A stretch of DNA of 63,466 nt, counting the filler, from Sphingomonadaceae bacterium (lineage in GTDB: Bacteria; Chloroflexota; UBA6077), in assembly GCA_050261575.1 (NCBI GenBank). It is 4 parts of 4 records of this genome, joined end to end, with 100 filler letters (N's around TTAATTAATTAA, not from the genome) between each part and the next. Parts side by side here need not be neighbours in the genome. Positions count along the whole stretch, not along the records: positions 1 to 30,266 come from JBLNDL010000019.1; 3 more parts are not named here. The stretch is one strand, 5' to 3'. Each line of letters begins with the position of its first letter. Position 1 is the first letter of the stretch. The position numbers were made by a program, and so were the translations under genes. Of the stretch, positions 8,029 to 29,247 are shown one piece after another. The notes beneath the pieces were generated by a model. The model made no database searches. It was not told the DNA's origin and was given only the letters and a program-made list of their open reading frames with translations.

Positions 8029-8162
8029 CCGCTTCCTCGAAACCTACCCGTCCCCGCTTCGCGCGGCCGTGCCTACGACCCGGCTGAACGGATTCATACC
8101 ATACTCCAACAGGAACCCACTCGCCAATCCGCGCCGAAGACCAGGCATCCTGAACCTTCCTG

Positions 8163-8422: not shown

Positions 8423-8447
8423 ACCCTCGCTCAGCGTCTCCCGCCGG

Positions 8448-9119: not shown

Positions 9120-9292
9120 CGCTAGCACCTCCCTGCGTTCTTCTGCGATCCCATCTTAGAACCTTGGTGGGCAAATGGAGGGTTGCCGATCTAAACGAGG
9201 ATCGCGTGCCCGGTGACCGACGAAGGGGGGGAAGACACTGGTGCCGTGAGGGGCGCGAAGGAGGGCACTGCAGGGGTCACTGTGATGGCCGG

Positions 9293-10090
9293 CTACCGCG
9301 GACGCTTCCGGATCATGCACTCCAACTGCGAGATCACATCCTCCGCCCGCCGCTCCTGCGCAGCCAGGGTCGTGAGCCAACGGTCCGTGCAGTGCACGGG
9401 GTCCTCTTCGTCCTCGGGTGGGGTGTCCAGGGCTCGGCGCAACTCTCCCAGCTCTCCTCGATCCAGGCGATGCATCATCCGAAGTATGGCCATCGCCCCG
9501 TACCCGGCGCTCCGAAGCACCCGGATCACCCGAAGCCTATTGATCTCAGTGCTACCGTAGAGCCGGTAGCCGTTGGCTGGGTCCCTAGGGACCCGAAGGA
9601 GACCGTTCCGCTCCCAGTTCCGAAGCGCGTCGGTAGTGGTTCCCAGAAGAGTGGCCGCCGCCCCGATCGGAAGAGGTTCGTCGGCACACCTCGGCATGGA
9701 ACCGCGCGCCCAATCCTCCAGGAGGTCCGCGGCAGCCTCCGCGTGAGCCCGCTCGGCCCGCACCTGAGACAGGTAGCGGCCGGCCAGGTCGAGCGCCCCC
9801 TCCAGATCACCTTCCACCGCCCGGCGCACCAATCCGAGGACCGGATCCTTCCCTCCCGGGTAGGGGAAGTGCAGCGCGGTCCTGGCCAGGCGCATCAGGT
9901 CGAGATGCTCGTCGGTGAACTGCCGGTAGCCCTTGGGGCTGCGAGGTATGGGCGGCAAGAAGCCCCAGACCTCGTAGAGCCGCACGGTGTTGGGATGCAC
10001 GCCCACCGCGCTGGCCACGTCGGACGTGCGCAGGTAGCCCCGTCCCCTGATCGGTCGCTCGTTTCGAGTGGCACGGGTGGGCCCCCTCAC
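9293..10090 (-). CDS. MerR-family regulator with two HTH domains
   Basis: RTSDVASAVGVHPNTVRLYE...GYRQF and IGAAATLLGTTTDALRNWE...NGYRLY. GTG start overlaps the MFS stop (GTGA). Confidence 0.85.
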   Translation of the reverse strand: MRGPTRATRNERPIRGRGYLRTSDVASAVGVHPNTVRLYEVWGFLPPIPRSPKGYRQFTDEHLDLMRLARTALHFPYPGGKDPVLGLVRRAVEGDLEGALDLAGRYLSQVRAERAHAEAAADLLEDWARGSMPRCADEPLPIGAAATLLGTTTDALRNWERNGLLRVPRDPANGYRLYGSTEINRLRVIRVLRSAGYGAMAILRMMHRLDRGELGELRRALDTPPEDEEDPVHCTDRWLTTLAAQERRAEDVISQLECMIRKRPR

Positions 10091-11292
10091 GATGCCTCCC
10101 TGTAGGGTCTTATCCTGCCGGTAACTAGGATCGCCACCAGGGTGGTGGCCACCGACAGCACGATGGGGGCGGTGGTGAGACCCAGATCCATCAGGGCACC
10201 GAAAAGGGCGGGAGCCCCCACCATGCCGACGAGTCCGCCCACGCTGTTGGCCGATGCCAGCGCCTGCTCCCTCTGGTCCTGGGGATAGGCACCCGCGATG
10301 ATCAACGGCTGGAGGCTTACCGTGCCCACCGCTCCCACGGCCAGCACCAGCACCCCGGCGAGGAAGAGCGGGCCGTAGCCGTTCAGGGACATGACGGACG
10401 TTCCGGCCAGGCTCAGCAGTTGAAACATCCTCAGCATCCTGGAGTGGCCCCATCGATCGCCCTTCAGTCCCACCATGAGAACCGCCAGCAGGCCCGCGAG
10501 GCGGGTGTAACCGATCACGGAGGCAGCATCTGCCTGGCTGAGGCCCCAGGCCCTCACCATGATCAGGGGAAGCACCGAGATCAACCCCATCAGAAGGATC
10601 GAGACCGAGGCGTGGATGGTGGCGCTGTACACCAGCCGAAGATCCAGCGGCACGCGTCCGCGCGATCCCCGCTTCACCGCCTGGCCGCCGCTATCGCGCA
10701 CCCTGGCGAAGGCCACCACCGCCGCGGCCCCCACGAGTCCCGCCATCAGCAACGTCCCGCGCCAATCGGTCCAGAAGAGCATCACCGCCACGAAGGTCGA
10801 TCCGCTGAACGATCCCAGGGTGCCGGCAAGCTCGTGCACCGCCATGAAGCGCGCCCTGTTCCGCTGGCCTCCGGCCTCCACCAGGAGAGAGAGCCCCAAC
10901 GGGAGGTAGAACCCGACGCCGAGCCCCATGAGCCCCGCTCCCACCATCAACGTGCCCGTGCCGGCAGCCTGGGACAGCAGCACGACCCCGGGGAGGGACA
11001 GGGCGACGCCGCCGACGATACGAGCCCTCCGGCTGCCGGGCAACCACCCGCTCGACCAGTTCCCGAAAGAGAAGCCGAGAAGCATCACGGCGATGGCCAG
11101 GCCTGCCGCGGAGTTGGAAAGCCGCAACTCGGCCCCGACGGTGGGCATGAGGGTATAGGTCAGGGCTCGAGAGAAGATGGACCAATAGAAGACGAGCATG
11201 CAGGCCAGGACCGCGTACGGCAGGCCCGCACCTTTTTCCGCTGCCATCCTGGGGGTGTTGCTGGATCCGGGGGAACCGCTCGAGTGCGCCAT
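10087..11292 (-). CDS. MFS transporter
   Basis: About 12 hydrophobic helices in about 400 aa. GDRWG loop motif. Confidence 0.85.
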   Translation of the reverse strand: MAHSSGSPGSSNTPRMAAEKGAGLPYAVLACMLVFYWSIFSRALTYTLMPTVGAELRLSNSAAGLAIAVMLLGFSFGNWSSGWLPGSRRARIVGGVALSLPGVVLLSQAAGTGTLMVGAGLMGLGVGFYLPLGLSLLVEAGGQRNRARFMAVHELAGTLGSFSGSTFVAVMLFWTDWRGTLLMAGLVGAAAVVAFARVRDSGGQAVKRGSRGRVPLDLRLVYSATIHASVSILLMGLISVLPLIMVRAWGLSQADAASVIGYTRLAGLLAVLMVGLKGDRWGHSRMLRMFQLLSLAGTSVMSLNGYGPLFLAGVLVLAVGAVGTVSLQPLIIAGAYPQDQREQALASANSVGGLVGMVGAPALFGALMDLGLTTAPIVLSVATTLVAILVTGRIRPYREAS

Positions 11293-11781
11293 CTTGACCG
11301 CCTTACCGCCTGACTCACGATCGTGCCCCGATCAACTACCGACCGGGGCTTGCGGATAGTCTACCAACAAGAGGTGGTGCAGCGCGACCGTGAGATCCCA
11401 GGGGCCGGATAGACGGTGCGGTGTGTGGATCGCACTAGGAAGCGGCGATCCCACGGCGGGTTGCATCGGATGCGTCGGGTCGCGCGCGTTCCCTGCGGGC
11501 CCTCGCTCGGCTACCAGCCGGACGTCGCGCTCTCCGTCGCCTGGGGATGCAGTTCGATCCGGTGGTCGATTGCCTCCGCCTTCGGGCAACGCTCAGACGA
11601 ACAGAGCCCTGAGCGCATCGTTCCTCAATTCGACGACGTAGGGCAGACATGGGGTTGCGCCCGCTCGCGTCACGTGTCCCCCGCCGCCCCCAGCCGAGGG
11701 CGCACGGGGCGGAGGTTCATCCCCCGCCCCGCCGCATGGGACTTGCTGAACGACGCACTTGGCCGGTGCCCTGCGCGGCGA

Positions 11782-12560: not shown

Positions 12561-13213
12561 ATGCTCGCCAAGGCCCTCACCTGCGCCGTCGTCGGCCTCG
12601 ACGGACAACTGGTCGAGGTCGAGGTCGACATCGCCTCCCACGGCATGCCCCACTTCGCCATCGTCGGCCTGCCGGACGCCGCCGTCCAGGAGGCCCGCGA
12701 GCGGGTCCGCGCGGCGATCAAGAACTCCGGCCTCGTCTTCCCGATGCGCCGCATCACGGTGAACCTGGCCCCGGCCGATCTGAAGAAGGAGGGGCCGGCG
12801 TACGACCTCCCCATCGCCGTGGGCATCCTGATGGCTTCGGGCCAGGTCCCGCCCCCGGACGTCTCCGCCCTCTTCCTCGGCGAGCTTTCACTCGACGGCG
12901 GCCTCCGCCACGCCAACGGCATCCTGCCCATGGTCTCCCTGGCCAGGGAGCGGCAGATCGAGACCGTCTTCGTGCCCGCCGAGGACGCCCGGGAGGCGGC
13001 CCTGGTCGAGGGCGTGACGGCCATCCCCGTAGAGAGCCTGGCCGCCCTGGTTGCCCACCTGCGGGACGAGGCGCCCATAGCCCCCACCCTCCACCAGGAC
13101 GGTTGGGAGGCGGTCGTCCCAGGCGACGGCGCCCGCGACATGGTCCACGTTCGGGGCCAGGAGCACGCCAAGCGCGCCCTGGAGGTGGCCGCCGCGGGGG
13201 GTCACAACCTGCT
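12561..13213 (+). pseudogene. comM: comM (YifB/Mg-chelatase-like AAA+), 5' part, interrupted by an integrated element
   Basis: VEVEVD, IVGLPDAAVQEARERV, NLAPADLKKEG and GQEHAKRALEVAAAGGHNLL motifs. Stops at TGA 13221-13223 inside attL. Confidence 0.95.
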
Positions 13214-13235
13214 TATGTTGTGAACAAAACACCCT
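13203..13235. other. attL (core plus P-arm GTTGTGAACAAAACACCCT)
   Basis: The P-arm at 13217-13235 matches the reverse complement of 22322-22340 at 17 of 19 positions. Confidence 0.85.
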
Positions 13236-13324
13236 GTCAATGACTCTGCCCTGGCTAGCCCTACTCGACAGTCTGAAGTACACTCACCCCAGGAGTCTGG
13301 ACACAACGCGGAGAGGAGTAACGG

Positions 13325-13774
13325 ATGGCCGACATCAAGGACTTGCTTGCTGCATCTGCCCAAGCTAATGCGGGTCTAGAGAGACTGAACCGAGACCTTA
13401 AACAAATGGCGGAACCGAGAGACTATTCCTTCCTGGCGGCATCCATCAAGGACTACAAGTTAGCCGATACCCTCTATGAGGAGTTGGAAGAGGACATTCA
13501 GAAGACCCAGCAAGGGCTCGGGCCAGACGAGCAAATCCTGGCTATCTACTATGCTCCAAATGGGGATCCCATTATCATCGACGACATCGGCTACCACAAT
13601 CCGTATCTCTTGATCCTGAAGGGTCGAGATGCTGAAGGGAACAAGTGTCGGGTCCTGGCCCACATGAACGTTGTTCAGATCGTGGTCAAGATACTCAAGG
13701 TGGTCGGCAAACAGCCCAGGCGGCAAATCGGCTTCGTGGGCGAACAGAACAGTAAGACCGAGGCAGAGCAATAA
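13325..13774 (+). CDS. DUF6173-like protein
   Basis: Strong RBS. IDDIGYHNPYLLILKGRDAEGN...AH...RRQIGF pattern recalled for DUF6173. Confidence 0.6.
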   Translation: MADIKDLLAASAQANAGLERLNRDLKQMAEPRDYSFLAASIKDYKLADTLYEELEEDIQKTQQGLGPDEQILAIYYAPNGDPIIIDDIGYHNPYLLILKGRDAEGNKCRVLAHMNVVQIVVKILKVVGKQPRRQIGFVGEQNSKTEAEQ

Positions 13775-13787
13775 GAGCCAAGAATAG

Positions 13788-13818
13788 AAAAGGGGAGGAG
13801 CCTTTCGACCCCTCCCCT
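13788..13818 (-). terminator. Intrinsic terminator between convergent genes
   Basis: AGGGGAGG/CCTCCCCT stem with an A-tract on the left (U-tail on the minus strand). Confidence 0.65.
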
Positions 13819-13841
13819 AAGTGTCGGACCGCCTTGATTGT

Positions 13842-14354
13842 CTAGCCGTTGGCTTCCTCGGTCTTCGGCTCTTCAGCCTTCAGTGCCTCCAGCGCCTTGG
13901 TCAGTTGAGTCCGGGCCTTGTTCAACAGGCTGGCCGCTGGACCCTCGACCCCTTGGACTTCGCTCAACTCTTGACTGATCCTCTCGAGCCGGACGACCGG
14001 AGGCAAAGGCTGTCTGCCGTTCCGAACCGCCGGCTTCTTGGTCCCCGCGTCGTAGCCCCTCAACCAAGCCGCCTGCAACTTCTCGGTTAGGGCCTTGTCC
14101 GTGCCTTCGGGGGTCGAGGGTGCCACCTTGGTCATCCCGCGCTGCCCCTTGGAGTAGCCTGCCGAGAACCAGTTCTTGACGGTCAGAACCGTGAGAACCT
14201 TGACCTGCTTGCTCGTCTCAGTCTGAACGCCGGTGGGCTGAGTCTGAGTCTCCACCGTCTCAGACTGGCCTTCTACGGTCGCCGTGGGCTCGCTGGTGAC
14301 GTCCTGCGCTTCGGTCTTCTCCTCAACTTGGGTCGCCTTCGTGGTCCTTGCCAT
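13842..14354 (-). CDS. Hypothetical protein with Rmf/CrpP-like GY..G...W..GY..G motif
   Basis: RBS GGAGG. Low-complexity E/T/Q N-terminus, central motif, helical C-terminus. Confidence 0.6.
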   Translation of the reverse strand: MARTTKATQVEEKTEAQDVTSEPTATVEGQSETVETQTQPTGVQTETSKQVKVLTVLTVKNWFSAGYSKGQRGMTKVAPSTPEGTDKALTEKLQAAWLRGYDAGTKKPAVRNGRQPLPPVVRLERISQELSEVQGVEGPAASLLNKARTQLTKALEALKAEEPKTEEANG

Positions 14355-14472
14355 CGTTCCGTCCTCCATCCTGATCTAGGGAGCTGTGTCCCCGACAGGC
14401 ATCATCATGTCGTAGATTGAGGACGGCGTATGCCGGGCAAAGCGCACAGAGTTTTGGTGGGGGTTCGGGTGG

Positions 14473-14697
14473 TTAGTTCCGCCGTTCCAGGGCTTCGTCC
14501 ATCTCCCGCAGGACCGAGAGCAGAGTATCCCGTAGAGACTCCAGCGCCCGGCGCCCGAGGACGGGCCGCCTAATGTCTGGTCTGTCCTCAGCGGGTCGGA
14601 GGTTGGCTGCTGCAATCTGGTCCCATCGGGCTAGGGCCGCCTCGACCCGTTCTAGTCGAGCTTCGGTTGCCCTTCTACTTGCTCCTGTCTTGGCCAT
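14473..14697 (-). CDS. Small helical hypothetical protein
   Basis: ATG with upstream AGGTAGGTGG. Amphipathic helical composition. Confidence 0.5.
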   Translation of the reverse strand: MAKTGASRRATEARLERVEAALARWDQIAAANLRPAEDRPDIRRPVLGRRALESLRDTLLSVLREMDEALERRN

Positions 14698-14804
14698 CTT
14701 CCACCTACCTTCTGATCCATTCTAGACGGTGCACACCGACTGCTGGACGGATAGGTTCGCTCCGAGTAGAATGACGATCTACAAACATCCCAAGGAGGCT
14801 GCCG

Positions 14805-16634
14805 GTGAGTCGTAGGAAGCACACGCCAAGGGCGACCCCGTCGAGGACCACTGGCCCGGTTAGTCCTCAACCCATCCCTGCAACTACTGATACGCCACAA
14901 CCAGGGAAGCCAGCTAATCCAATTATCGATGGTAGTAGGACACTGGCTCAGGGGATGGCAGTCAACCTCGCCTGGGACCTGGCCAAGGCCGCAGCACAAG
15001 GGCCAGTCACCGATATCTGGAATGAGATTATCAAGAATGCACCATCGCTGATCAATAGTGCGGTTAGTGCCGCCCACCAACTCGTGGGCTTGTCGGCGAT
15101 GAACTTCATGCAGCGCGAGACTCTCAGTCCGGTCGAGTGGCGATACCTCACCAATGGCTTTCTGTTCTACGGGGACAACCTCGATATCCTCGGTCGCTAT
15201 ATCAAGGACGAGTCCGTCGATCTGGTTTACCTCGACCCGCCTTTCAACAGTGACCAGGACTTCAACGTCCTCTTTGACGAGCAAGACGGCACCAGGAGTG
15301 CGGCTCAGATCAAAGCCTTTGAGGATATGTGGCGTTGGGATCAGGCATCGGTCGCTGCCTATCAGGAAATGGTTGAACACGGACCCGAAGATGTAGCCAA
15401 GGCTCTCCGTGCATTTCGGATTATGCTCGGTGAGACTGACCTTCTGGCCTATCTGTCTATGATGGCTCCACGTCTCGTAGAACTAAAACGAGTGATGAAA
15501 CCTACAGCTAGTATCTATCTGCACTGTGATGCTACTGCCGGACATTACCTCAAGATGCTGATGGATGCTGTCTTTGGGCCAAAGCAGTTTCGTAATGAGA
15601 TTGTCTGGTACTACTATAACAAGATGCATGACCGGCGCAAGAAGCTTTTCCCAAGGGCACACGACACCCTTCTGTTCTATGTCAAGGATATTGAGGCCGA
15701 TTTCACATTCCACCAGCTCAAGGAGATGCGTGACGAACCAGTCAAGCAACTGCTCCGCAAGAAGGTGGACGGTCGCATGGTCAACGTCAAGGACGCTGAC
15801 GGTCACGTAGTCTACCAACTCAAAGAGGACCGGACTCTCGACAACGTATGGCGTATTCCATGTCTTCAACCAGCAGCCAGGGAGAAGCTAGGTTATCCCA
15901 CACAGAAGCCAGAGTCACTGTTGGAGAGGGTAATCGAGGCGAGTAGTAATCCTGGTGATGTAGTTCTTGATCCATTCTGTGGTTGTGGCACCTCGATTTC
16001 GGTAGCCCAAAGACTTGGCCGGCGTTGGATCGGGATCGATGTTACTCACCTTGCCGTTAACTTGATAAAGCACCGGATGTACCACGCCTTTGATGATGGA
16101 ATTGCCTACAAGGTCATCGGTGAACCCACCACCCTCCAGGATGCAATTGAGCTGGCTGAACAGGACAAGGACCGGATGCAGTTCCAGTATTGGGCACTGG
16201 GCCTAGTTGCCGCTCGGCCAACGGAGCGGAAGAAGGGGGCGGACAAGGGGATTGATGGACGTCTGCACTTCCACGACGGGCCGGATTTGAAGACCCAGCA
16301 ACTGATTATCTCGGTGAAGTCCGGGGGTGTGGACGTCAAGGATGTTCGGGAACTGATTGCGGTCGTAAAACAGCAAGAAGCACAAATGGGGGTCTTGATC
16401 ACTCTGGAGAAGGTCAAGAAGACCATGCGGGCTGAAGCGGCTTCCGAGGGCTTCTACTACTCACCTCTCTGGGATAGGAAGTATCCACGTATCCAAGTCC
16501 TGACTATCGAAGAGCTCCTTAACGGCAAGCAGATAGACATGCCTCCAATAAAGCAGGTCAACCGTACGTTTAAGCAGGCACCAAGGGCAAAGATAATCGA
16601 GGGGATAGAACAACTGTTGCCGTTGATGGAGTAG
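14805..16634 (+). CDS. N4/N6 DNA methyltransferase (beta class) fused to a C-terminal Mrr-like nuclease domain
   Basis: YGDNL, YLDPPF (motif IV), YPTQKP and VLDPFCGCGT (motif I), then GADKGIDG...ISVKSG. RBS GGAGG before GTG. Confidence 0.85.
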   Translation: MSRRKHTPRATPSRTTGPVSPQPIPATTDTPQPGKPANPIIDGSRTLAQGMAVNLAWDLAKAAAQGPVTDIWNEIIKNAPSLINSAVSAAHQLVGLSAMNFMQRETLSPVEWRYLTNGFLFYGDNLDILGRYIKDESVDLVYLDPPFNSDQDFNVLFDEQDGTRSAAQIKAFEDMWRWDQASVAAYQEMVEHGPEDVAKALRAFRIMLGETDLLAYLSMMAPRLVELKRVMKPTASIYLHCDATAGHYLKMLMDAVFGPKQFRNEIVWYYYNKMHDRRKKLFPRAHDTLLFYVKDIEADFTFHQLKEMRDEPVKQLLRKKVDGRMVNVKDADGHVVYQLKEDRTLDNVWRIPCLQPAAREKLGYPTQKPESLLERVIEASSNPGDVVLDPFCGCGTSISVAQRLGRRWIGIDVTHLAVNLIKHRMYHAFDDGIAYKVIGEPTTLQDAIELAEQDKDRMQFQYWALGLVAARPTERKKGADKGIDGRLHFHDGPDLKTQQLIISVKSGGVDVKDVRELIAVVKQQEAQMGVLITLEKVKKTMRAEAASEGFYYSPLWDRKYPRIQVLTIEELLNGKQIDMPPIKQVNRTFKQAPRAKIIEGIEQLLPLME

Positions 16635-16644
16635 AAGGCTTATG

Positions 16645-16673
16645 GGGGCCGAGTCTCTGACTGGCTCGGCCCC
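16645..16673. terminator. Hairpin between the convergent MTase and recombinase genes
   Basis: GGGGCCGAGTC/GGCTCGGCCCC stem. Confidence 0.55.
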
Positions 16674-16680
16674 TGCATCG

Positions 16681-18249
16681 TTATGCCCCCCTCGCCATGA
16701 ACTCAAAGGGTTCCGACTCCCAACCGGGGATAACGAACCGGATGTGCCAGTCTCGGCCCGATACTCGGACCACGACCCCCCAACGCTCCAACGCCCGCCG
16801 CTTCTGCTCGAACCCGAAGCTATCGATCTGCCCGGCTACCTCGTCGCAGTACCGGAACAGTTCTTCCCACTTGGTGCCCATGGACTCCTGCTTGGCGATC
16901 TGCTCATTCAGTGCGTCTATGGTCGCCCGTAGTCGTCGCTTCTCCTGGTCGGCCAGAGCCAGTTCCTGCTTGATGGTGTCCAGCGCTAGGTTCTCGTCGT
17001 CGGCATACATCCGGATCAACCGCTGCAACCGACCCTCCACCTTGGTTAGTGCCTTCTCGGCCGCGTCTCGGTCGGCTTCCAGTAGTCGGCTCGTGCCCGC
17101 CTCTCGACGCCGATTGTACTCGTCCAGAATGACCGTGGGGTCCTTCAGCACTTCGGCCATTCGCTCCCAGACGAAGGACTCCAGAAGGTCGGCGTTCACC
17201 CGCTTGGCTCCGCAAGGCCCGCTCGGGGTTTCCCTGGACGAGCAGCGGTAGGTCCTTCGACCCTTCTCAGGGTTGGCCCGCATCTTTCGGCCGCAGACCG
17301 AGCAGACCGCCAAACCTCGAAGGAGGTAGGGTCGCTCTTCGTTGCGGGTCGCCTCTCCCATGTTGACTGCCAGCCGGTTCTGGACCCTGTCCCAAAGTTG
17401 GGCGGACACGATGGCCGGTGTCACCCCATCGGGCAGCTTGATCCACTCGGACTCGGGTCGCTCCAACAGGACCCGCACCTGCTTGCCGTCCCTGACCTGC
17501 TTCTCCCAGGTCCAGTGCCAAGCGTAGGTCTCTCCCTTGTAGGCCGTGTTCACAAGGACCCGCCGAAGGCAGCCCGTACCCCAGTAGGGCTTTCGACCCA
17601 GTTTCCTTTTCCCCTCGGAGGGCGCTGGTATGCCGGTATTGTTCAGTTCGTGGATCACCGACCGGATAGACCGCCCTTCCTCACCGACCCACCTGAAGAT
17701 GCACCGGACAACTTCGGCCTCGGGCTCGTAAATCCTACGGACACCGGCCGCCTTGTCTCGGCGGTAGCCGTACAGTTCCGAACTATGGCTGTGGATCTTC
17801 CCACTCTTGATCCGGGCTCGCTTGCCTCTGGTCACTCGCTCCTTGATCTTCTCCCGTTCAACCTCGGCGGCGAACGCCTTGGCCGACCGAAGGAACTTCC
17901 CGACCGCTGAGTCCTCGAAGCTCTCGGTCACAAACTCCAAGCCGACCCCTGCCCGCTCGAACTCGTCGGCCAGAATGTAGAGGTGGGCTTGGTTTCGGGC
18001 CAGACGGTCAACCGCGTGGGCGATCACAACATCAACGTCGCCTTGACGGATGGCCTCTCGGAGTCTGGTCACCTGAGGGCGCTCGGCTAGATCGTACCCG
18101 CTATGCACATCTTGGTAGACGGCTACCACCTCGTAGCCTCGGGCCTCGGCATGCCTCTGGCTGTACTCCTGTTGGGTGTCCAAGCTGGTACCGTCTTCCT
18201 CTTGCTTGGTGGTGGACACCCGACAGTAGATCGCGGCTCGCTTGGTCAT
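16681..18249 (-). CDS. Large serine recombinase (integrase)
   Basis: IYCRVST catalytic Ser, DRLAR, recombinase domain, Zn ribbon CSVCG..YRC..C and C-terminal coiled coil. 522 aa. Confidence 0.95.
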   Translation of the reverse strand: MTKRAAIYCRVSTTKQEEDGTSLDTQQEYSQRHAEARGYEVVAVYQDVHSGYDLAERPQVTRLREAIRQGDVDVVIAHAVDRLARNQAHLYILADEFERAGVGLEFVTESFEDSAVGKFLRSAKAFAAEVEREKIKERVTRGKRARIKSGKIHSHSSELYGYRRDKAAGVRRIYEPEAEVVRCIFRWVGEEGRSIRSVIHELNNTGIPAPSEGKRKLGRKPYWGTGCLRRVLVNTAYKGETYAWHWTWEKQVRDGKQVRVLLERPESEWIKLPDGVTPAIVSAQLWDRVQNRLAVNMGEATRNEERPYLLRGLAVCSVCGRKMRANPEKGRRTYRCSSRETPSGPCGAKRVNADLLESFVWERMAEVLKDPTVILDEYNRRREAGTSRLLEADRDAAEKALTKVEGRLQRLIRMYADDENLALDTIKQELALADQEKRRLRATIDALNEQIAKQESMGTKWEELFRYCDEVAGQIDSFGFEQKRRALERWGVVVRVSGRDWHIRFVIPGWESEPFEFMARGA

Positions 18250-18350
18250 ACTCCTTCTCCTCGGGCAGAATGGGCGGCCTCCTTATGTTGTGGCCGCCCT
18301 ACTAATGTGTCGTGTTTGCTCACTCTCGAGAGCCCCCCGCCCTGGGGGGT

Positions 18351-18394
18351 AAAAAGGGGGCAGACTACCTGCTGGGGATCAGGTAGTCCGCCCC
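18351..18394 (-). terminator. Intrinsic terminator after the capsid gene
   Basis: 15-bp stem GGGGCAGACTACCTG/CAGGTAGTCCGCCCC with a 5-U tail on the minus strand. Confidence 0.75.
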
Positions 18395-18414
18395 ATGTTG
18401 GATGGTCTTCTGGA

Positions 18415-19686
18415 CTAGGCTCTAATGCCCTTGACCAGGCAGAAGGCGCCGGGCTGAGCCACGGCAACATCCGCCCGCAGGTAGGCTCTGAAGATCACCT
18501 GGAGATCGCGGAAGCTATCCCCGGCCTCTCGGCTGACTTCCAGACGCACACTCGTCCGCATGCCGACCATCATCTGGCTGAAGTCGCCGATGAAGGCATC
18601 GCTGTTGTCCGAAGTGTTGCCCTGCGCCAGGTTGGTCGGGACCTGCTTGGTGGGATACTTCTTGAGGTCCAGCCAGACCTGCGGAGCAGCCAGCGGCGTA
18701 TTGTCGCCGGCGATGCCAGTCTTGAGCCGGCTCAGAGTGCCCAAGGTCCGCGGGTTGAGGATGATCGAGGCGGGCTCGTAGTTGCTGTTCCTGACGTACT
18801 CGACCGCGTAGGCCGTCCAGTCGTAGTTGGCCGGAACCGCACCGTTAACACCCATCTCATAGGTGTTGATGCCTTCCCAGTTCCGCAGCCCCAAGGGCTC
18901 ATTGGCCGCGCCCAACCCATACAGCGCGGCCCGGTCCAGTTCTAGGGCCAGAGCAGCGGCGATGCTGTTCTCGACGCTTAGACTCGGGGCATCCTCCAGC
19001 AGTTCAACACTGGACTTGACGAGCACCATCAGCGTCCGGGCATGCAGGCTGAGCCGACCCAAGCTCATGTCACTGAAAGAGCCCTGGGCGTTCTCCGCCT
19101 TCCAAGTGGCGGTCGGGTCTCCGGTAATTCGAGCCAGGTTGAGGGTGTCCGAAGTCATCGGAACCGTTCTGGCTCCAGCCTGGAACACCCGAGTCTGGTT
19201 GCGGGCCAGATCGATGATTTCCGCACTCAGGGCTTCGGGGACCGCATAGCCACCCAAAGCGTCCAGGCCCTCGGCCATCGCCCGCCTCTCTGCTTCCGCT
19301 TCCCTCCAGTTGCCGGTCACGATGCCTCTTAGGCAGCGGTCGAGACGCAGGTTCTGTCCCCTGGAACCAAGCCCAAGGCTCGCGGCCATTCGCTGCTCGG
19401 GGGCCAGGATCAGAACATCGCCGGATCGGCGGATTGGGGCTTCCATTGGTTCGCCAAGTCCACCCAACGGGTGACTGCGACCCTCAGGTGCCGGGAGGTC
19501 CAGCTCCACTACCATCTGATCCTCTCTGGCGGTCATCTTGGACACCTGGGCTTCAAGCTTCTGGAAATCGGCATCCTGAGCACGAGTCAACGGCCGTCCA
19601 TCGGCCGCATCCATAATCCCTCGCATCTTGGCGATGAGTTCGCCCTTCTGTCGCCGGAGTTCGATCAAGTCCTTAAGTTCTGCCAT
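18415..19686 (-). CDS. HK97-fold phage major capsid protein with N-terminal coiled-coil (delta-like) domain
   Basis: GGYAVPE.LS.EII, W.AEN, S.ELLED, LD.AAL.G.G....P.GL, GDFS and F..LQV.FRA..R.D motifs. Confidence 0.9.
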   Translation of the reverse strand: MAELKDLIELRRQKGELIAKMRGIMDAADGRPLTRAQDADFQKLEAQVSKMTAREDQMVVELDLPAPEGRSHPLGGLGEPMEAPIRRSGDVLILAPEQRMAASLGLGSRGQNLRLDRCLRGIVTGNWREAEAERRAMAEGLDALGGYAVPEALSAEIIDLARNQTRVFQAGARTVPMTSDTLNLARITGDPTATWKAENAQGSFSDMSLGRLSLHARTLMVLVKSSVELLEDAPSLSVENSIAAALALELDRAALYGLGAANEPLGLRNWEGINTYEMGVNGAVPANYDWTAYAVEYVRNSNYEPASIILNPRTLGTLSRLKTGIAGDNTPLAAPQVWLDLKKYPTKQVPTNLAQGNTSDNSDAFIGDFSQMMVGMRTSVRLEVSREAGDSFRDLQVIFRAYLRADVAVAQPGAFCLVKGIRA

Positions 19687-19915
19687 GTGTTGGATACACT
19701 CCTGGTTGTTAATTCCCCTCATTGGGGTGGTGGATTGTTCAGAGTCTTTGGACTGCCGCTCTGCCGCCCACTCCGTGGCGACTCGGCGCTACCTGGGGTC
19801 CACACTCCGTTGGATGCCCAGGCCCAGGAGTGACTCTGGAGTCGCGACCCTCGGCTAGGACGCCGCTGGTCCTAGTCGCGGGTTTGGCCTAAAGACCGTC
19901 TCTAGGCCGGGTTGG

Positions 19916-20176
19916 TTAACCGAGCAGGGCGAGCCTGCGTCGTATCTGCTCCCGACCCGCCCCGCGCTTGGGGTTGGGCTCGGGTTCAGAGTCAAAGGTG
20001 GACTCGATGGCGACCGGAGGGTTCTCCGTCAGCCACTCGACGTAGATCTTGTGGTCGACCGCTCGGCGTTCCCTGCGACCCATTCCCTGTACTTCGGGGG
20101 CAGTCGCCATTGCCTGGGTAATGCGGTCTACCTCTTCCTGGCTTCGGGCCTGGATGATCGTGGTCAGTTCGTCCAT
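19916..20176 (-). CDS. Hypothetical protein (86 aa)
   Basis: RBS AAGGAG. Co-oriented between the RHH-like and capsid genes. Confidence 0.6.
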   Translation of the reverse strand: MDELTTIIQARSQEEVDRITQAMATAPEVQGMGRRERRAVDHKIYVEWLTENPPVAIESTFDSEPEPNPKRGAGREQIRRRLALLG

Positions 20177-20187
20177 GTGGTCTCTCC

Positions 20188-20388
20188 TTACAGAACCTGG
20201 CAGGTCGCCGGTTGGTCTTGGCTCTTGCTGGACTGCTCTCGGCTCTCCCTTTGCGCCATGTGCTTGTGGGCGGAGCGGATCAGGAGCCGAACGGTGTCAG
20301 GTGAAGTCCGCTCAACCTTCGAAGCCAGGTCCGTCAAGGACTGGTGCTCATCAGGATCAAGAAAGACGGTAACTCGGAAGTTCCTCAC
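20188..20388 (-). CDS. Small ribbon-helix-helix-like DNA-binding protein
   Basis: GTG start with GGGAGG RBS. Beta strand RVTVFL then two helices. Confidence 0.55.
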   Translation of the reverse strand: MRNFRVTVFLDPDEHQSLTDLASKVERTSPDTVRLLIRSAHKHMAQRESREQSSKSQDQPATCQVL

Positions 20389-20435
20389 TGGTTTCCTCCC
20401 TTGGTGAGTGATTGACTGGCCCAAGCAGGGCATAC

Positions 20436-20475
20436 AAAAAGGGCCGATCGCTGCTCTTGGGCAACGCCGACCCTT
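20436..20475 (-). terminator. Terminator-like hairpin downstream of the HNH/cos-like region
   Basis: Imperfect AAGGGTCGG...CGGCCCTT stem followed by a T-tract on the minus strand. Confidence 0.5.
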
Positions 20476-20613
20476 CAGGATGTTTTCTAAGTAGTCGCTA
20501 TAACAATAGCGTGTAGGGCATTTGGAAACTGGCCTTCGCGAACGTTTGGCTGGGCCCGCGGGTTCTGGCCTTACCTGCCGGGGATTTGGCCCCCATATAC
20601 CCCGGCGGGGGGC

Positions 20614-20961
20614 CTAGCGGTCACCCCATCCACTAGACTGGATCGCGGTTTTCCGGGAGTGGCAACTCTGGCACATTGACTGGAGGTTGTTCTCGTCGTC
20701 GGTGCCACCCTGAGACTTCGGGATGATGTGGTCCACATTGACCGCCGGTCTGCCACAGACCACACACCAGGGATACCTCTTAAGAAACTGATCGCGGGTC
20801 TTCTTCCACTTGGACTTATACCCGCGATAGGACATTCCTGGTCGAGTAGACCGCCCAATCTGTCGAGTCTTCTTGTGCTCAGCACATAGACCACCCGACC
20901 CAGCCGGAACCTTGTTCTTGCAAGGGTAGACTGAGCAAGGAACCATTGGCTTCTCGGGCAT
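20614..20961 (-). CDS. HNH endonuclease, HK97 gp74-like (terminase-associated)
   Basis: N-terminal PC..PC...C.EH, RGY..W...R, CVVC..VDHIIP..GG.D..NNLQSMC.SCH.RKT. Confidence 0.9.
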   Translation of the reverse strand: MPEKPMVPCSVYPCKNKVPAGSGGLCAEHKKTRQIGRSTRPGMSYRGYKSKWKKTRDQFLKRYPWCVVCGRPAVNVDHIIPKSQGGTDDENNLQSMCQSCHSRKTAIQSSGWGDR

Positions 20962-21540
20962 GCTGTACCCTCATATCGGATAGCCTGTGGCGCTCGCAGG
21001 ACTCACCTAAATGCGCATCTAGTTCGTTTGCTTACCTGGGGGTTCTAGGTCGCGTGGTGGTCAACGTGGTGCGCCGTGGGTCGTCCTGTGTAGTCATTCC
21101 CTCAAGACTGATGCTGACGCAGGTCGGTGAGCAGCTGATACACACCGACCTGCCCCAACACTTGGAGAAAAAGGACCGAGACCGAGTCAAAGCCCGCCTG
21201 GTGGGTTGGTATGCCAGGGAGGATGCAGTCCCCGACTCGCCAAACAACCAGCGACCGCTTACCGAAGGCGATCACTGATTGTCTGACTTGAACCAACCTT
21301 ACACATCTATTGTATCGCGTTCCACCGGGGTGCTTACGTCGTCAATACTCAGGTTTTCCTGCTTCTTTTGCGACCCGCCTCGCGGATTACCGAGTCAAGA
21401 TCCGGGTTGGGTGTGGATACTGTACTATTACTCTTCTTTCAAAGTAGATATAGGATATGAATAAGATCCTCAGAAATCACTCATAAGGTAAGGGGAGTTT
21501 CAAAACGAGCCGTAACATCCCCAAATAGTGCGGCATCCCG

Positions 21541-22101
21541 CTAGACTCTGGGTCGATGGGCAACAACGGCCCCAGGCCGGGGCACCAGAGGGAAGGAAGC
21601 CGGACCCCACCGCATGACCGACCAGAGTTTCTCCATGTGCTGCGCGGTCATCTTGGGAGGGTCGGCAACCTGCTCGAAGTCCAAGACCTTGTCCGTCCAA
21701 CCAGCTAAGATCATGACAGTGACACTCGGCTCTTGTCCGAGCTTCCGAGCCAATACGTGAAGGGCCGCCTTCCGAGTCTCACCCCAAGCCATGCACTGCT
21801 CTGGTAGGTTCAGGGGAATGCCGTTCGACTTCTGGGCATTGTAGGGAGACTTGGCCGCCACTCGCTTCTTGGTGGTCACATAGGCCAGGTACTTGCCCTC
21901 ACCCTTCGGGTCGTCTGACAGGAACCTGACCCGAACGAATACCTCGGTAGTCTCGTCCTCTTGGACGTCCCAGTTCGCCCTCTCTCGATACAGTCTCTCG
22001 ATCAGCAAGACAGTCTCGTCGGTGGTCAGCATCCGGGTTTGTAACTGTCCGTCCCCTGGCCTTAGATGGGTCTCTACCCGCATCTCTGGTCCTCGGCTCA
22101 T
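21541..22101 (-). CDS. Hypothetical protein, possible HicB-like fold
   Basis: ATG 22101 with purine-rich RBS. GKYLAYV...LPEQCMAWGETRKAAL segment. Confidence 0.5.
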   Translation of the reverse strand: MSRGPEMRVETHLRPGDGQLQTRMLTTDETVLLIERLYRERANWDVQEDETTEVFVRVRFLSDDPKGEGKYLAYVTTKKRVAAKSPYNAQKSNGIPLNLPEQCMAWGETRKAALHVLARKLGQEPSVTVMILAGWTDKVLDFEQVADPPKMTAQHMEKLWSVMRWGPASFPLVPRPGAVVAHRPRV

Positions 22102-22321
22102 GGCCCTTTCTCCCTCTGCTATACTGTAGAAGCTCGGACGCAGGGCACAGAAAAGCCGCAAGGCGTTTGCCCTGCGGCTCAATGGATGCCTATGCGACCT
22201 GAGTTCAACTCTCTACAACCATTATAGCAGGTTGACCCCCAACGCTTACGTCCTGATTTGGACTAAACGCCTGCGTGTTGTTGCTGGATTGAGTAGAGAT
22301 GGGTCGGAAGCCTCTGGGCAG

Positions 22322-22349
22322 AGGGTGTTCTGTTCATAACCTGCTGATG
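22322..22349. other. attR (P-arm AGGGTGTTCTGTTCATAAC plus core)
   Basis: Inverted partner of the attL arm. Core AACCTGCT is followed by comM codons. Confidence 0.85.
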
Positions 22350-23216
22350 GCGGGTCCCCCGGGCTCGGGCAAGACGCTGCTGGCCCGCACCCTCCCCACC
22401 ATCCTGCCCGCCATGACGGTCGACGAGATGCTGGAGGTCACCAAGATCTACTCCGTCACCGGCCGCCTCTCCAAGGAGGTCCCCCTGGTCCGCGAGCGCC
22501 CCTTCCGGGCTCCGCACCACACCATCTCCTACGCCGGCCTCATCGGCGGCGGCAAGTGGCCCCACCCGGGGGAGATATCGCTGGCTCATCGGGGAGTGCT
22601 CTTCCTGGACGAGTTCCCGGAGTTCGGGCAGGCCACCCTGGAGCTGCTCCGCCAGCCCCTGGAGGACGGCATCGTCACCATCTCCCGAGCCCAGGGCAGC
22701 GTCACCTTCCCGGCCAAGTTCATGCTCGTCGCGGCGATGAACCCCTGCCCATGCGGCTTCTACGGCGACGCACAGAAGGAGTGCTCCTGCTCCTCCACCC
22801 TCGTAGCCAAGTACCAGAAGCGCATCAGCGGCCCCATGCTCGACCGCATCGACATCCACGTGGAGGTCCCCCGCATCGCCTACGAGAAGCTGGCTGACGA
22901 CGGCCAGGGGGAGGATTCCGCGCAGATCCGGTCGAGGGTGGAGGCGGCCAGGGAGATCCAGCGGGCCCGCTTCCGCGGAACCAACCTCACCTGCAACGCC
23001 GACATGGGGCCCGCCGACGTCCGCGCCCACTGCCGCGTGGAGGGCTCCGCCCAGAGCATCCTGAAGTCCGCAGTCGCCCAGATGCACCTCTCCGCCCGCG
23101 CCTACCACCGCATCCTCAAGGTCGCCCGCACCATCGCCGACCTCGAGGGCACCCCCCAGATCGGCCCCGCCCACGTCGCCGAGGCCGTGCAGTACAGGCC
23201 GAGGAGCGGGGGGTGA
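22346..23216 (+). pseudogene. comM: comM 3' part (AAA+ domain)
   Basis: GPPGSGKT, RPFRAPHH, GEISLAHRGVLFLDEFPEF, AAMNPCPCG and SARAYHRILKVARTIADL motifs. Joined with the 5' part it gives a 507-aa frame. Confidence 0.95.
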
Positions 23217-23267: not shown

Positions 23268-25322
23268 CTACTCCAAGCCCATCGCCCTGATCGCGGCGTT
23301 GATGGGGTCCATGTAGAACACCGGCTGGACGGCGTTCAGCACCTCATCGGGCACGTCACCCAGGTCGCGCTTGTTCTCCGAGGGAATGAGAACTCGCTTC
23401 GCTCCAGCATCCAGGGCGAGCTCCAGCCGCTCGGTCAGGTTCGGCACCTTCTGGAGCAACCCCTTCACGCTCATCTCCCCGACTACTACTGCAGTAGGGT
23501 CGGCGGGTCGCTCCAGGATAGCGGAGACCATGGAGATGAAGAAGGCAATGGCCGTCTCTGCCCCCTCCTTAGCCTGATTCAGGTTGACAGCCTGGACCGT
23601 GAAATCGTACTGCCGAGGATCTCGGTCGATCCCCAGATCCTTGATGTGGGCCTTCAGGTAGGCGTCCGCCGCCTTCAGCGCCTCCTTCATGACCGGCGAC
23701 AAGCTGCCCAACGCGACGATCCGCCCACTGCCGGGGTTCACCTGGGTCTGTATCAGGTAGAGGGCGAGCTTCCGGTCAGAAGGGTCCATGCCGACCGTGT
23801 ACACCGAGCCCGGTGGTAGCGGCTGGCCGGTGATCATTACTCCACCGCCGCTCTCCGGCACGGTGACGAACTTCTGGGCGTGAGTCTCCCGATCTGTGTA
23901 GCTGAAGTTCACGTCCCAGTACTCCAGCCCGCCAATCTTCTTCAACTGCTCTTTGACCCGCCTGCGCATCTCCAGGGCGAACCCCACGTACTCCCCCAGT
24001 TCCTCCTTGCCCACTTTCCCGTCGGGGTGGATCAGCTTCACCAGACCGCTGACCGTCTTCCGGACCGCCTTGGCATCGCGCCCTCCCACGTGGTTCCCGA
24101 ACTCGAAGTACCGCTCCGGCAGGTCCACGTAGCTGGTCCTCCGCAGCGCCCGCAGCACCTCCGCCAGGTAGTCGGAGAGAAGGCCGAAATGGGACGTGTA
24201 GTACTCATCCCGCGTCTTGCCCAACTCCCAGCCCGGCAGGTAGAAGTGGATCCGGTCGAAGAAGGCGGTGTCCATCTCCTTCGGCATTGGATAGAAGAGG
24301 TTGGAGGTGCGAACGACAGTGCTGACATCGCCGTCGAGGTTGCCAACGAAGACTATGGACCCCTCGGCGTTAATGACATCCCGCCCGCGACTGAACGCGC
24401 CGTCCTCCATGTAGTTCTTCATGATATTGATGCCGTTCTTGTCCTGGAACCGGATCCCCGCCGCCTCGTCGAAGGCGACGGTATCCCAGAGGGCAACCAG
24501 CCCGCGCTGCCCCGTGGCAAGATTCACGAACATCTGGGCAACGGTAGTCTGCCCGCCAGACACCAGGTGGCAATAGGGACTGATCTGCTGATAGACGAAG
24601 CTCTTGCCTGTTCCTCTGGGGCCCAGCTCGATCAGATTGAAGTTCCGTTCCACCAGAGGGATCAGCCGCGACAGATAAAGCAGCTTCCTGCGAGGAGTGA
24701 AGTACTCGTGGCTGGGTTCCATGCCGAGAGAGCGAAGCAGCAGGTCGATCCACTCCTGCCGTGAGAACTGTCCCCTGGCCTCCTGAAGGGGGCCAATGCT
24801 GTACTGGGAAAGCTGGATCGGCTTGAGCTTGCCGATGAAGAAGGGCCGCGTGTAGTTCTTGAACTTGTAGGTTCCGTCATATCGTAGGAAGATCTCCGCC
24901 CAGATGCCCCCCATCAGCAGACGATCATGCTCCCGGAGGGTCGACTCGTCGATGTTGACGTAGTCCAGGCTGATGTTGTGGAGCGTCGCCCAGTACTTGT
25001 CGTCGACCTCTTTGAGCGTGGCGGAGACCTTGTCGATGATGGTGTAGACGCCCTGCTGCTGGATCCGCGCCTTCACGATCTCTCGCTCGTCGGGCTTCAC
25101 GTACCGCTCGGACAGGTTCTTCCGGACGAACTCAAGCCCGTGTTCGATGACTGTGGGATCGGTGGACGCGCAGTACTTCCCCAGGAGGTATTCGATGACG
25201 AAGATGGGCACGGCATAGGCGGAACGCAACCGGCGCACCAGGTCCTTCCTTACCACCAAACCGGGAAAGGCTGCATTCGCCTTCTCGTCCAACCTATCGA
25301 GTTCGACCGTTTCCATCGTCAT
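23268..25322 (-). CDS. brxL: BREX Lon-like protein BrxL
   Basis: FPGLVVRKDL, EYLLGKYC, ELGPRGTGKS, DTVAFDE and C-terminal Lon-like domain. 684 aa. Confidence 0.9.
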   Translation of the reverse strand: MTMETVELDRLDEKANAAFPGLVVRKDLVRRLRSAYAVPIFVIEYLLGKYCASTDPTVIEHGLEFVRKNLSERYVKPDEREIVKARIQQQGVYTIIDKVSATLKEVDDKYWATLHNISLDYVNIDESTLREHDRLLMGGIWAEIFLRYDGTYKFKNYTRPFFIGKLKPIQLSQYSIGPLQEARGQFSRQEWIDLLLRSLGMEPSHEYFTPRRKLLYLSRLIPLVERNFNLIELGPRGTGKSFVYQQISPYCHLVSGGQTTVAQMFVNLATGQRGLVALWDTVAFDEAAGIRFQDKNGINIMKNYMEDGAFSRGRDVINAEGSIVFVGNLDGDVSTVVRTSNLFYPMPKEMDTAFFDRIHFYLPGWELGKTRDEYYTSHFGLLSDYLAEVLRALRRTSYVDLPERYFEFGNHVGGRDAKAVRKTVSGLVKLIHPDGKVGKEELGEYVGFALEMRRRVKEQLKKIGGLEYWDVNFSYTDRETHAQKFVTVPESGGGVMITGQPLPPGSVYTVGMDPSDRKLALYLIQTQVNPGSGRIVALGSLSPVMKEALKAADAYLKAHIKDLGIDRDPRQYDFTVQAVNLNQAKEGAETAIAFFISMVSAILERPADPTAVVVGEMSVKGLLQKVPNLTERLELALDAGAKRVLIPSENKRDLGDVPDEVLNAVQPVFYMDPINAAIRAMGLE

Positions 25323-25334
25323 CGAGCTTCCTCC

Positions 25335-29234: not shown

Positions 29235-29247
29235 GCATGATAGCACG

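Follow-up and report, generated by a model that had tools for sequence, protein, structure and literature searches.

The stretch of DNA analysed here (63,466 nucleotides (nt), filler included; hereafter the window) was taken from assembly GCA_050261575.1, a genome listed as Sphingomonadaceae bacterium and placed by GTDB in the Chloroflexota (UBA6077). Its first part, contig C19 (JBLNDL010000019.1; window 1-30266), carries an element of 9,132 bp that splits the host gene comM/YifB. We consider it somewhat probable that this is a minimal, integrative phage-satellite-like element that depends on a helper phage. A serine recombinase has integrated it into comM at a defined core, with a precise presence/absence polymorphism; it contains a complete, conserved HK97-family capsid gene, beyond which no virion, packaging, lysis or replication gene could be recognised; and its capsid lineage is tied to small (8-12 kb) integrase-bearing elements. 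The satellite reading appears the best one because no remnants of phage genes were detected, the backbone recurs, the attachment (att) sites are exact, and the relatives of the capsid are found in small integrase-bearing elements.

Boundaries of the element and its target gene

The insert, counted with one copy of the core, corresponds to window positions 13206-22345. An 8-nt core, AACCTGCT, occurs at 13206-13213 and again at 22338-22345, and these two copies give the length of 9,132 bp (see Table 1 for all features). An earlier note, made from the window alone, had described a fully bounded element of this length without an assembly gap, and this description holds: core copies stand at both ends and no N lies inside. 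The first N run is found at 30267-30366; this linker consists of runs of N around ttaattaattaa, and the contig of the element is 1-30266 alone. GC content is 0.52-0.63 across 13001-22000, down from about 0.66, and the drop coincides with the interruption of comM/YifB, a Mg-chelatase-like gene that is divided into 220 N-terminal codons and 305 remaining codons.

When the ends of the insert are joined, two 18-nt arms, complementary at 16 of 18 positions, enclose an 8-nt spacer. Palindromic arms around a short spacer are the usual anatomy of the phage-side attachment site (attP) of a large serine recombinase (LSR). The insert thus combines what is expected of an LSR element, namely an 8-bp core inside an imperfect inverted-repeat attP and precise restoration of the target in empty-site contigs (see below). 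Integration of the tRNA type was rejected, as the window contains no tRNA.

The target was also compared in other species. The two comM halves abut on one strand in 31 of 39 comM loci, 30 of them without a frame break, and the remaining eight loci are either interrupted or cut by a contig end. In the nearest relative (L033, a Chloroflexi metagenome-assembled genome (MAG) whose comM C-terminal part has 91% protein identity), the window flanks overlap on 18 nt.

Empty sites and a variant copy in metagenomes

Six public sequencing runs from two studies hold the region in small shares, and contigs of four of them were compared, two from soil (X1 and X4; study P1) and two from sediment (X2 and X3; study P2). 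The comparison was made from contigs, and stretches without cover carry no evidential weight. No RNA run was among the runs listed as matching the region.

In both X1 and X4, one contig joins position 13205 straight to 22338, which skips exactly 9,132 bp and leaves eight shared letters. The depth of the empty-site contig is 40.4 in X1 and 12.7 in X4, close to that of the flank contigs (about 34 and 13.7, respectively, spanning 12.5-16 in X4, with 0-3 differences from the window), and pieces of the element reach a depth of only 2.6-5.6. Empty sites therefore outnumber the element by about 10:1, and the majority of the population has an intact comM at the predicted core while a minority carries the element. 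The att sites, which had been called intact, are thus exact in two runs. In addition, the exact protein of one open reading frame (ORF) of the element, orf213, is present on a 9,184-nt Logan contig, a length that equals the 9,124 bases specific to the element (13214-22337) with 30 more at either end. At an assumed k of 31, one branch of an assembly bubble would be expected to have this length, and the contig is consistent with such a branch.

The two runs of study P2 contain a variant copy. A 6,731-bp contig covers 16702-18254, 18385-20592 and 20983-21882 at approximately 94-96% nucleotide identity and so includes the genes for recombinase and capsid together with orf86, orf213 and the Arc-like gene. 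Its capsid protein (P0001) is identical to that of the window at 415 of 423 residues; these eight changes, set against 95 nucleotide differences over 2,208 nt of the capsid-side stretch, point to purifying selection on the capsid gene. The 390 nt at 20593-20982, containing the whole HNH gene, are replaced by nine letters (GGCTATGGG) in the X2 and X3 contigs, with the two sides about 95% identical. The further 1,657 nt of the contig past the recombinase show no match to the methyltransferase region, which has almost no depth in X2-X4, and another X2 contig spans 13805-14450 (orf175) with 41 differences. Since the variant lacks the HNH gene and any match to the methyltransferase, both genes are variable cargo, and what remains as the backbone is the small ORFs together with the recombinase and capsid genes. 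The element is therefore not a one-off, since a second study yielded its backbone again, about 95% identical in nucleotides. The HNH gene, which had been thought part of the design, is not fixed, being absent from a nearly identical variant.

The occurrence of empty and occupied sites together in the same samples would also suit an island that stays in the chromosome and interferes with phages. In that case, the capsid protein would poison the heads of HK97-type phages that infect the cell or give them a wrong size, the cargo of methyltransferase and nuclease-like genes would serve defence or anti-defence, and reversible excision would switch comM on and off. According to the available text of PMC5052747, the satellite capsid homologue Ccm itself works by interference. 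Further points in favour are a defence locus of the BREX (bacteriophage exclusion) type directly next to the element, the behaviour of the methyltransferase-nuclease fusion as variable cargo, the lack of a replicon and of the small terminase subunit (TerS), and the best NCBIfam match of the recombinase, which is the developmental excisase XisF, below the model cut-off. Against such an island, the capsid gene matches no PADLOC model, and related elements carry a primase, TerS and HNH, often together with the large terminase subunit (TerL) and a portal, all of which are transfer machinery. Such an island is rather unlikely in our view; moreover, interference and satellite transfer are not exclusive, and known satellites do both.

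The capsid gene and the absence of other phage genes

All domains of a large serine recombinase are present in the integrase (Pfam Resolvase, E = 1e-31; Recombinase, E = 5e-16; zinc ribbon, E = 2e-13). The capsid protein scores 124 bits against PF05065 (cut-off 24.2), covering profile positions 1-279 of 280, and 141.3 bits against TIGR01554 (cut-off 27.5), covering positions 3-384 of 385; chains of HK97 gp5 are matched in the PDB at E = 7e-9. The HK97-type isopeptide residues are not kept: at the cross-link positions, which we take to be K169, N356 and E363 in HK97 numbering, a phmmer alignment to 1ohg places G202, L395 and Y402. These residues are not required for membership of the capsid family. 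A reading of the protein as an encapsulin was rejected, as PF05065 was its sole Pfam family (E<=0.01) and neither cargo nor an operon context was present. The Pfam capsid domain is preceded by about 145 amino acids (aa), an N-terminal region that appears to resemble the delta scaffolding domain of HK97, phi12 gp33 and Ccm, as these are described in the available text of PMC5052747.

Scans for promoters and terminators gave totals at the level of chance (4 against 2.3 expected, and 8 against 7.4), and two long-stem hairpins alone stand out, one after the capsid gene and the other between orf149 and orf175. Family matches together with the 15-bp-stem hairpin confirm the earlier assignment of an LSR, a capsid gene with its terminator, an HNH gene and a methyltransferase-nuclease. 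The assignment of a ribbon-helix-helix (RHH) regulator has become a weak call, its sole support being a match to an Arc-like repressor family at E = 3e-4; a single-sequence AlphaFold2 (AF2) model of this ORF was unusable (pLDDT, the predicted local confidence, of 48).

The 10-11 candidate ORFs of the element showed no match to terminase, portal, protease, tail, lysis, primase or replication families, and none to helicase or Rep families, in Pfam, PHROGs and NCBIfam. Further examination of six-frame stop-to-stop segments (at least 45 aa, within 13150-22400, E<=0.05) against PHROGs detected no head, packaging or tail family in 111 of the 116 segments, the other five being genes already named. 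These scans agree with the earlier observation that terminase, portal, protease, tail, lysis and primase or replicase genes are lacking, and the decayed terL or portal fragments that were named beforehand as evidence of prophage decay were not found in the six-frame scan.

Relatives of the capsid

A total of 9,791 capsid homologues were obtained at E<=0.001, none of which, apart from P0001, is closer than about 55% identity. A pattern scan with the capsid alone revealed no relative in genome contigs and just two distant loci in metagenome contigs, where parts of the protein were matched at 38% and 51% identity. Relatives at 40-55% identity occur almost only in integrase-bearing elements of 8-12 kb, and the best match in 50,697 phage genomes reaches 23-28% identity, a contrast that is weakened because cultured phages of the phylum are almost missing from that collection.

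Via an alignment of 30 sequences (A1), 31 genome loci were found, of which 16 were scanned with Pfam; one set of scans used selected ORFs of at least 100 aa, and a second set took in the majority of ORFs with 220 aa or more in the -8/+5 kb around the capsid gene, with 13 overlapping ORFs dropped. TerL and/or portal genes stand beside the capsid in five of the 16 loci. Four of them (L002, L013, L016 and L029) hold an integrase, in most cases a primase-like gene as well, and genes for HNH, TerL, capsid and portal in about 10-11 kb, similar to phage-inducible chromosomal islands of the capsid-forming type (cf-PICIs), and L004 additionally has a tape-measure gene. Homologues of the window HNH adjoin or are fused to TerL in the same four loci, which supports the earlier view of this HNH as terminase-associated. 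In the other 11 loci (L003, L005, L012, L014, L015, L018, L020, L022, L023, L027 and L030; contig ends truncate L012 and L020), the capsid is accompanied by an integrase and/or a primase and by neither TerL nor portal. The closest capsid homologues are thus found in small integrase-bearing elements rather than in full-length prophages.

One of these capsid-only loci, L027 (2280-12520; a Chloroflexota MAG), is an element of about 10.2 kb that also lies in comM, some 65 codons further in. It contains a 428-aa serine recombinase, an insertion of the IS630 type (DDE_3 plus helix-turn-helix (HTH)), HNH, the capsid, and a 754-aa AAA_25 protein that we read as its replication helicase. A different LSR, 34% identical, is located in comM in a groundwater Chloroflexi MAG (L071, 10389-12119, minus strand), after about residue 152 of the C-terminal part; the contig ends 1.5 kb beyond this gene.

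In IMG/VR, 80 of the 110 matching contigs were examined, 78 of which are no longer than 13.6 kb. Here small profile hidden Markov models (HMMs) of our own were used, built from 4-11 annotated sequences (three of them from a single sequence) and accordingly limited in reach. They located TerL or portal in 74 of the 80 IMG/VR loci and in nine of the 31 genome loci, and an integrase within 7 kb of the capsid gene in 34 and 24 loci, respectively. Six IMG/VR contigs were without a TerL or portal match by HMM, and Pfam was run on three of them. In L100 (9,950 nt), Pfam identified a G39P-like loader, HNH, TerS, capsid and LSR, and their order agrees with that in the window; L140 has a tyrosine integrase, a DUF3631/DUF3854 protein (read as primase-like), HNH, an S78 protease and the capsid; and L098 has, besides the capsid and an HTH protein, an LSR that shares 35% identity with that of the window. 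The capsid and LSR element of L098 (4295-6923) abuts a 385-aa ORF for a portal of the SPP1/P22 type on the opposite strand, and could have been inserted next to or into a prophage head gene.

In a FastTree phylogeny of 108 capsids (four short rows dropped; local support only, with long branches), the window capsid is nearest to those of L027 and L012, both capsid-only Chloroflexota loci, although this branch is not starred. The capsid-only label, some rows of which are truncated contigs, changes eight times on the tree, at least six of these changes being forced, and it spans phyla; shuffled labels give a mean of 24.9 changes. The capsid-only state is therefore clustered, yet it has arisen or been lost several times.

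The frequency of fuller modules among these relatives, with TerL or portal in most IMG/VR loci by our HMMs, raises the possibility of a stranded remnant, i.e. a cf-PICI-like satellite or small prophage that has lost TerL, portal, protease and replicase and can no longer be transferred, its recombinase and capsid gene being undecayed. The lack of a replicon and TerS, the large ORFan content and the presence of the capsid in only one of 66 genomes of the class would be in line with such an origin. However, no pseudogene fragments were detected in the six-frame scan, every ORF is intact and the terminators are present. Moreover, two copies that are about 5% apart in nucleotides share the reduced backbone and differ at only 8 of 423 residues of the capsid; on the tree, at least six places across phyla show the capsid-only state; and exact att sites go together with a presence/absence polymorphism. 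We regard a remnant as unlikely. With no decayed fragments, homologues outside full prophages, a recurring backbone and exact att sites, a satellite explains the element better than prophage decay, and this part of the earlier interpretation stands.

Proposed mechanism and points to be weighed

For a helper-dependent satellite, the following course can be proposed, of which we infer every step after integration. Upon infection by, or induction of, an HK97-type helper, the element would excise; this step would need a directionality factor, and none was recognised among the small ORFs. Its capsid protein would then co-assemble with or replace that of the helper, on the helper portal and with the helper protease, either forming the whole shell or, as in the case of Ccm (PMC8569155), occupying particular capsomers. 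The resulting small shells, of about T=4, would be sized for 9 kb; the projected capacity of T=4 shells is about 10 kb in the available text of PMC13669383, and the 9.1-kb element is near that value. The helper terminase would package the element DNA at a site copied from the helper, and the HNH protein, where present, may assist HNH-dependent cleavage at the cohesive-end (cos) site, an activity described for HNH-dependent cos phages (bioRxiv 10.1101/2022.09.08.507074, available text). Such assistance would not be essential, because a close variant lacks the HNH gene. The methyltransferase may protect the DNA in new hosts, and for any replication the element would rely on its helper or its host.

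Several results weigh against the satellite reading. No helper was identified: the assembly (103 contigs, 3.72 Mb; 100% complete, 4.8% contamination) contains no PF03354 TerL, PF04860 portal or S78 protease, and its only head module is on a high-GC contig of 6,309 nt (C4; L155), with a TerL fragment, an SPP1-type portal (phrog_64), phrog_399 and a major head protein of phrog_212, a capsid family other than that of the element. This contig may represent a piece of a prophage or a phage contig that entered the bin. The element itself showed no primase, replicase or origin, though most relatives have one, and neither TerS nor a cos site was found. The HNH gene is absent from the close variant, and five of some ten genes are ORFans without a homologue in related elements. 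No circular (attP) junction was seen among 15 of the 27 joints listed, and the empty sites may represent strains that never received the element rather than excision. Terminal direct repeats were found in none of 111 related loci (80 IMG/VR contigs among them), the capsid is present in only one of 66 genomes of the class, its own (E<=1e-20), and the absence of TerL and portal in loci outside the Pfam scans depends on our HMMs of limited reach. The packaging site and the HK97-like cos helper of the earlier note were accordingly conjecture, with no cos site, helper or circular form found.

No second homologue of the element's capsid is present in the assembly. A second satellite-like island was found on contig C12 (L156, G000:C12:12000-31999), at about 3524-11360, with a tyrosine integrase, an 866-aa primase, a 288-aa ORF matching the ATPase part of TerL only (phrog_7579), and then phrog_27743. 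Neither this island nor the C4 module is an evident helper.

A broader proposal is that capsid-only integrative elements form a distinct, cross-phylum class of satellites, related to cf-PICI-like elements and arisen or reduced several times. Each member would combine a single HK97 capsid gene with an integrase and usually with a primase and HNH, and would have neither portal nor TerL. The Chloroflexota element would be the most stripped-down of them, without replicon and TerS, and its lone satellite capsid protein would be enough for satellite-sized heads on a helper portal. We put this forward tentatively, as a possibility that is less likely than the satellite reading of the element alone.

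If the satellite reading is true, the element would be the first satellite-like one with known boundaries to be described from Chloroflexota; no paper on phage satellites in this phylum was among the literature matches listed, judged by title and the start of the abstract. It would also show a portal-less HK97 mini genome in a natural, integrated form, its att sites being exact and its presence polymorphic in the population. With a 423-aa capsid, a serine integrase and a pair of attP and attB sites (attB being the bacterial site), it would offer a compact test case for asking whether one satellite capsid gene can hijack the head assembly of a helper. The integrase and its att sites are, in addition, a candidate site-specific recombination pair.

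Cargo, small ORFs and neighbouring genes

The leftward operon runs in the order orf213, a 579-nt stretch, HNH, the Arc/RHH-like gene, orf86, capsid, hairpin and recombinase, and the methyltransferase gene is convergent on the recombinase gene. The C-terminal domain of the methyltransferase fusion matches NA-iREase1 (E = 2.5e-10), the Pfam family of inactive restriction endonucleases, slightly better than Mrr_cat (E = 4.6e-8), and PADLOC classifies the fusion as MTase_II. By eye, its nuclease-like domain has S-V-K in the place of the motif, which is (E/Q)-x-K in Mrr-type enzymes. The GC content of this region (0.516) is the lowest in the element. The low GC content, together with the S-V-K motif and the NA-iREase1 match, suggests that the fusion is recently acquired cargo and that its Mrr-like domain may bind rather than cut DNA. 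The motif TATGGGGGCC occurs at the edge of the HNH cassette (20588-20597, minus strand) and again just beyond the methyltransferase stop codon (16641-16650), within inverted repeat I1.

Little could be assigned among the small ORFs. In 114 related loci they have no homologue except for a weak match of orf149 in L023 (E = 5e-4). No match to orf149 was found in Pfam, NCBIfam, PADLOC or the PDB, and its single-sequence AF2 model was unusable (pLDDT 43). Among 5.8 billion clusters orf213 matched only itself, and in the Atlas nothing rose above chance (all matches <0.9; structural TM (template modelling) scores <=0.35). Searches of orf149, orf175 and orf213 against PDB sequences gave nothing below E 0.6. 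On the whole element, PADLOC matched its generic methyltransferase and HNH models alone. Rfam gave no match at E<=0.1, and the non-coding stretches contain no iterons and no tandem repeats of note.

Directly to the right of comM lies the BREX-type defence locus (23268-30198, minus strand), which is cut by the contig end at 30266.

Table 1. Features of the element, its target gene and the adjacent defence locus (window coordinates)
Feature	Position	Strand	Evidence or remark
comM/YifB, N-terminal part (interrupted target)	12561..13223	+	Pfam ChlI and start of Mg_chelatase
attL core AACCTGCT	13206..13213	.	joint 13205->22338, 8 letters fitting both sides
attP arm P'	13217..13234	.	inverted partner of 22323-22340, 16/18 complementary
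orf149	13325..13774	+	phrog_3306 (unknown function), E 2.7e-8
Terminator-like hairpin between orf149 and orf175	13791..13818	-	12-bp stem, then T run
orf175	13842..14369	-	no family above cut-off; conserved in the study P2 variant
orf74	14473..14697	-	no family match (Pfam, PHROGs, NCBIfam)
N6_N4_Mtase fused to Mrr-like (possibly inactive) nuclease domain	14805..16634	+	N6_N4_Mtase, 162 bits
Large serine recombinase (integrase), 522 aa	16681..18249	-	Resolvase, Recombinase, Zn_ribbon_recom; phrog_95 integrase, E 5e-100
Terminator-like hairpin after the capsid gene	18394-18357	-	15-bp stem, 10 GC pairs, then CTTTTT
HK97-family major capsid protein, 423 aa	18415..19686 (ORF open to 19722)	-	PF05065, TIGR01554
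orf86	19916..20176	-	no family match (Pfam, PHROGs, NCBIfam)
Possible Arc/RHH-like regulator (weak)	20188..20433	-	phrog_3431 Arc-like repressor, E 3.2e-4, alone
HNH endonuclease	20614..20961	-	PF01844, 56 bits; phrog_144; presence/absence cassette 20593-20982
Stretch without identified gene, 579 nt; candidate regulatory or packaging region	20962..21540	.	six-frame segments without family match
orf213, ORFan (186 aa from ATG at 22101)	21541..22182	-	matches only itself among 5.8 billion clusters
comM/YifB, C-terminal part	22299..23216	+	Mg_chelatase, 283 bits, and Mg_chelatase_C; homology from ~22335
attP arm P	22323..22340	.	inverted partner of 13217-13234
attR core AACCTGCT	22338..22345	.	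repeat of attL core; empty-site contigs
BrxL	23268-25322	-	BREX locus
PglZ	25335-28040	-	BREX locus
SoFic-like Fic protein	27977-29176	-	BREX locus
PglX, C-terminal part	29332-30198	-	BREX locus

Comparison with known systems

Literature searches on capsid-only satellites surfaced nothing beyond the papers on Ccm-bearing Staphylococcus aureus pathogenicity islands (SaPIs), on cf-PICIs and other phage-inducible chromosomal islands (PICIs), and on mini HK97 genomes; the cited statements below follow the available parts of these papers.

Portal-less 'twilight-zone' mini HK97 genomes of 5-11.6 kb were reported in 2025-2026, in a paper with 536 genomes (Aguilar et al., Nat Commun 2026, PMC13669383). 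Their dominant group, from the human gut and about 8.75 kb in size, carries an integrase, regulators, RepA/helicase and many unknown genes; a major capsid protein (MCP) with encapsulin-like domains and a scaffold are the sole structural genes reported, without terminase, portal or tail, and a satellite lifestyle was proposed for it, untested. With 9,132 bp, an MCP and no terminase, portal or tail, the element fits this description of mini genomes. It differs from the dominant group in its plain PF05065 capsid, its serine integrase and the absence of any Rep or helicase match, and it was seen integrated in the genome of a soil Chloroflexota bacterium, where its att sites are defined.

Size and gene set also agree with an alternative that the same paper raises for its portal-less genomes, namely a 'mini' virus-like element of the HK97 fold that is autonomous, without need of a tailed helper, and uses non-canonical packaging and delivery. 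In the available text (PMC13669383), this alternative is tied to rolling-circle initiators of the Rep/HUH type, and none was found in the element. The capsid is a plain PF05065 protein without an encapsulin domain, and the HNH belongs to the terminase-associated neighbourhood seen in relatives. Furthermore, we know of no HK97-fold virus that packages its DNA without portal and terminase. We hold an autonomous mini virus to be very improbable.

The helper-dependent satellite that we favour is best set beside the known satellites. Capsid genes of cf-PICIs form deep clades apart from those of phages (bioRxiv 10.1101/2022.09.08.507074, PMC10085698). Such islands (e.g. EcCIEDL933) include HNH in the packaging set and have no tail or lysis genes reported, which the element likewise lacks, and many relatives of its capsid share a cf-PICI-like set of integrase, primase, HNH, TerL, capsid and portal. 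However, cf-PICIs encode a protease, portal, head-tail connectors, TerS and TerL, none of which was found in any reading frame of the element. SatelliteFinder requires at least 9 of 11 core components and treats serine and tyrosine integrases as exchangeable (PMC10085698); the element has at most three or four of these components (integrase, capsid, HNH and possibly a regulator). It is not a cf-PICI. As to PICIs in general, as characterised in the available text of Fillol-Salom 2018 (PMC6092414), the element shares the integrase, of serine type, and lacks their replication module (pri/rep) with origin. PICIs are without structural genes in that text, whereas the element, at 9.1 kb, has a capsid gene; and in the place of a master repressor with divergent regulators it shows a weak Arc-like match (E 3e-4).

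In its mode of integration, the element is like LSR prophages and islands that split host genes: it has the Resolvase, Recombinase and Zn-ribbon domains, a palindromic attP core and a coding gene as target, and comM is also occupied by other serine-recombinase elements (L027 and L071). Gene-splitting LSR elements described so far are full prophages or developmental excision elements, and none is known to be defined by a lone capsid gene. PICIs, for their part, typically use a tyrosine integrase.

The cos-type SaPIs (SaPIbov5, with helpers phi12 and phiSLT) share the most with the element. They are small and integrative, have one HK97-fold capsid homologue with an N-terminal region (helical in Ccm), and have no portal, TerL or tail in the available descriptions. 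They rely on an HNH-dependent cos helper, and Ccm, the capsid homologue of cos-type SaPIbov5, resizes helper heads to give small ones (PMC5052747, PMC8569155). SaPIbov5 differs in being larger, at about 14 kb, and in having a regulatory and pri-rep module of PICI type as well as a cos site that has been demonstrated. The element differs in turn in its large serine recombinase, an HNH gene of its own in some copies, its full-length TIGR01554-type capsid, the absence of any primase, replicase or cos site found, and its Chloroflexota host. By analogy, the element would work most like the Ccm-bearing cos SaPIs. A capsid-bearing, portal-less design was thus already known, at least from the available texts on Ccm-type cos SaPIs and mini HK97 genomes (PMC13669383), and the 'different design' claimed in the earlier note was overstated. 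What is new in the element is the Chloroflexota host, the serine integrase, the comM target and the lack of a replicase.

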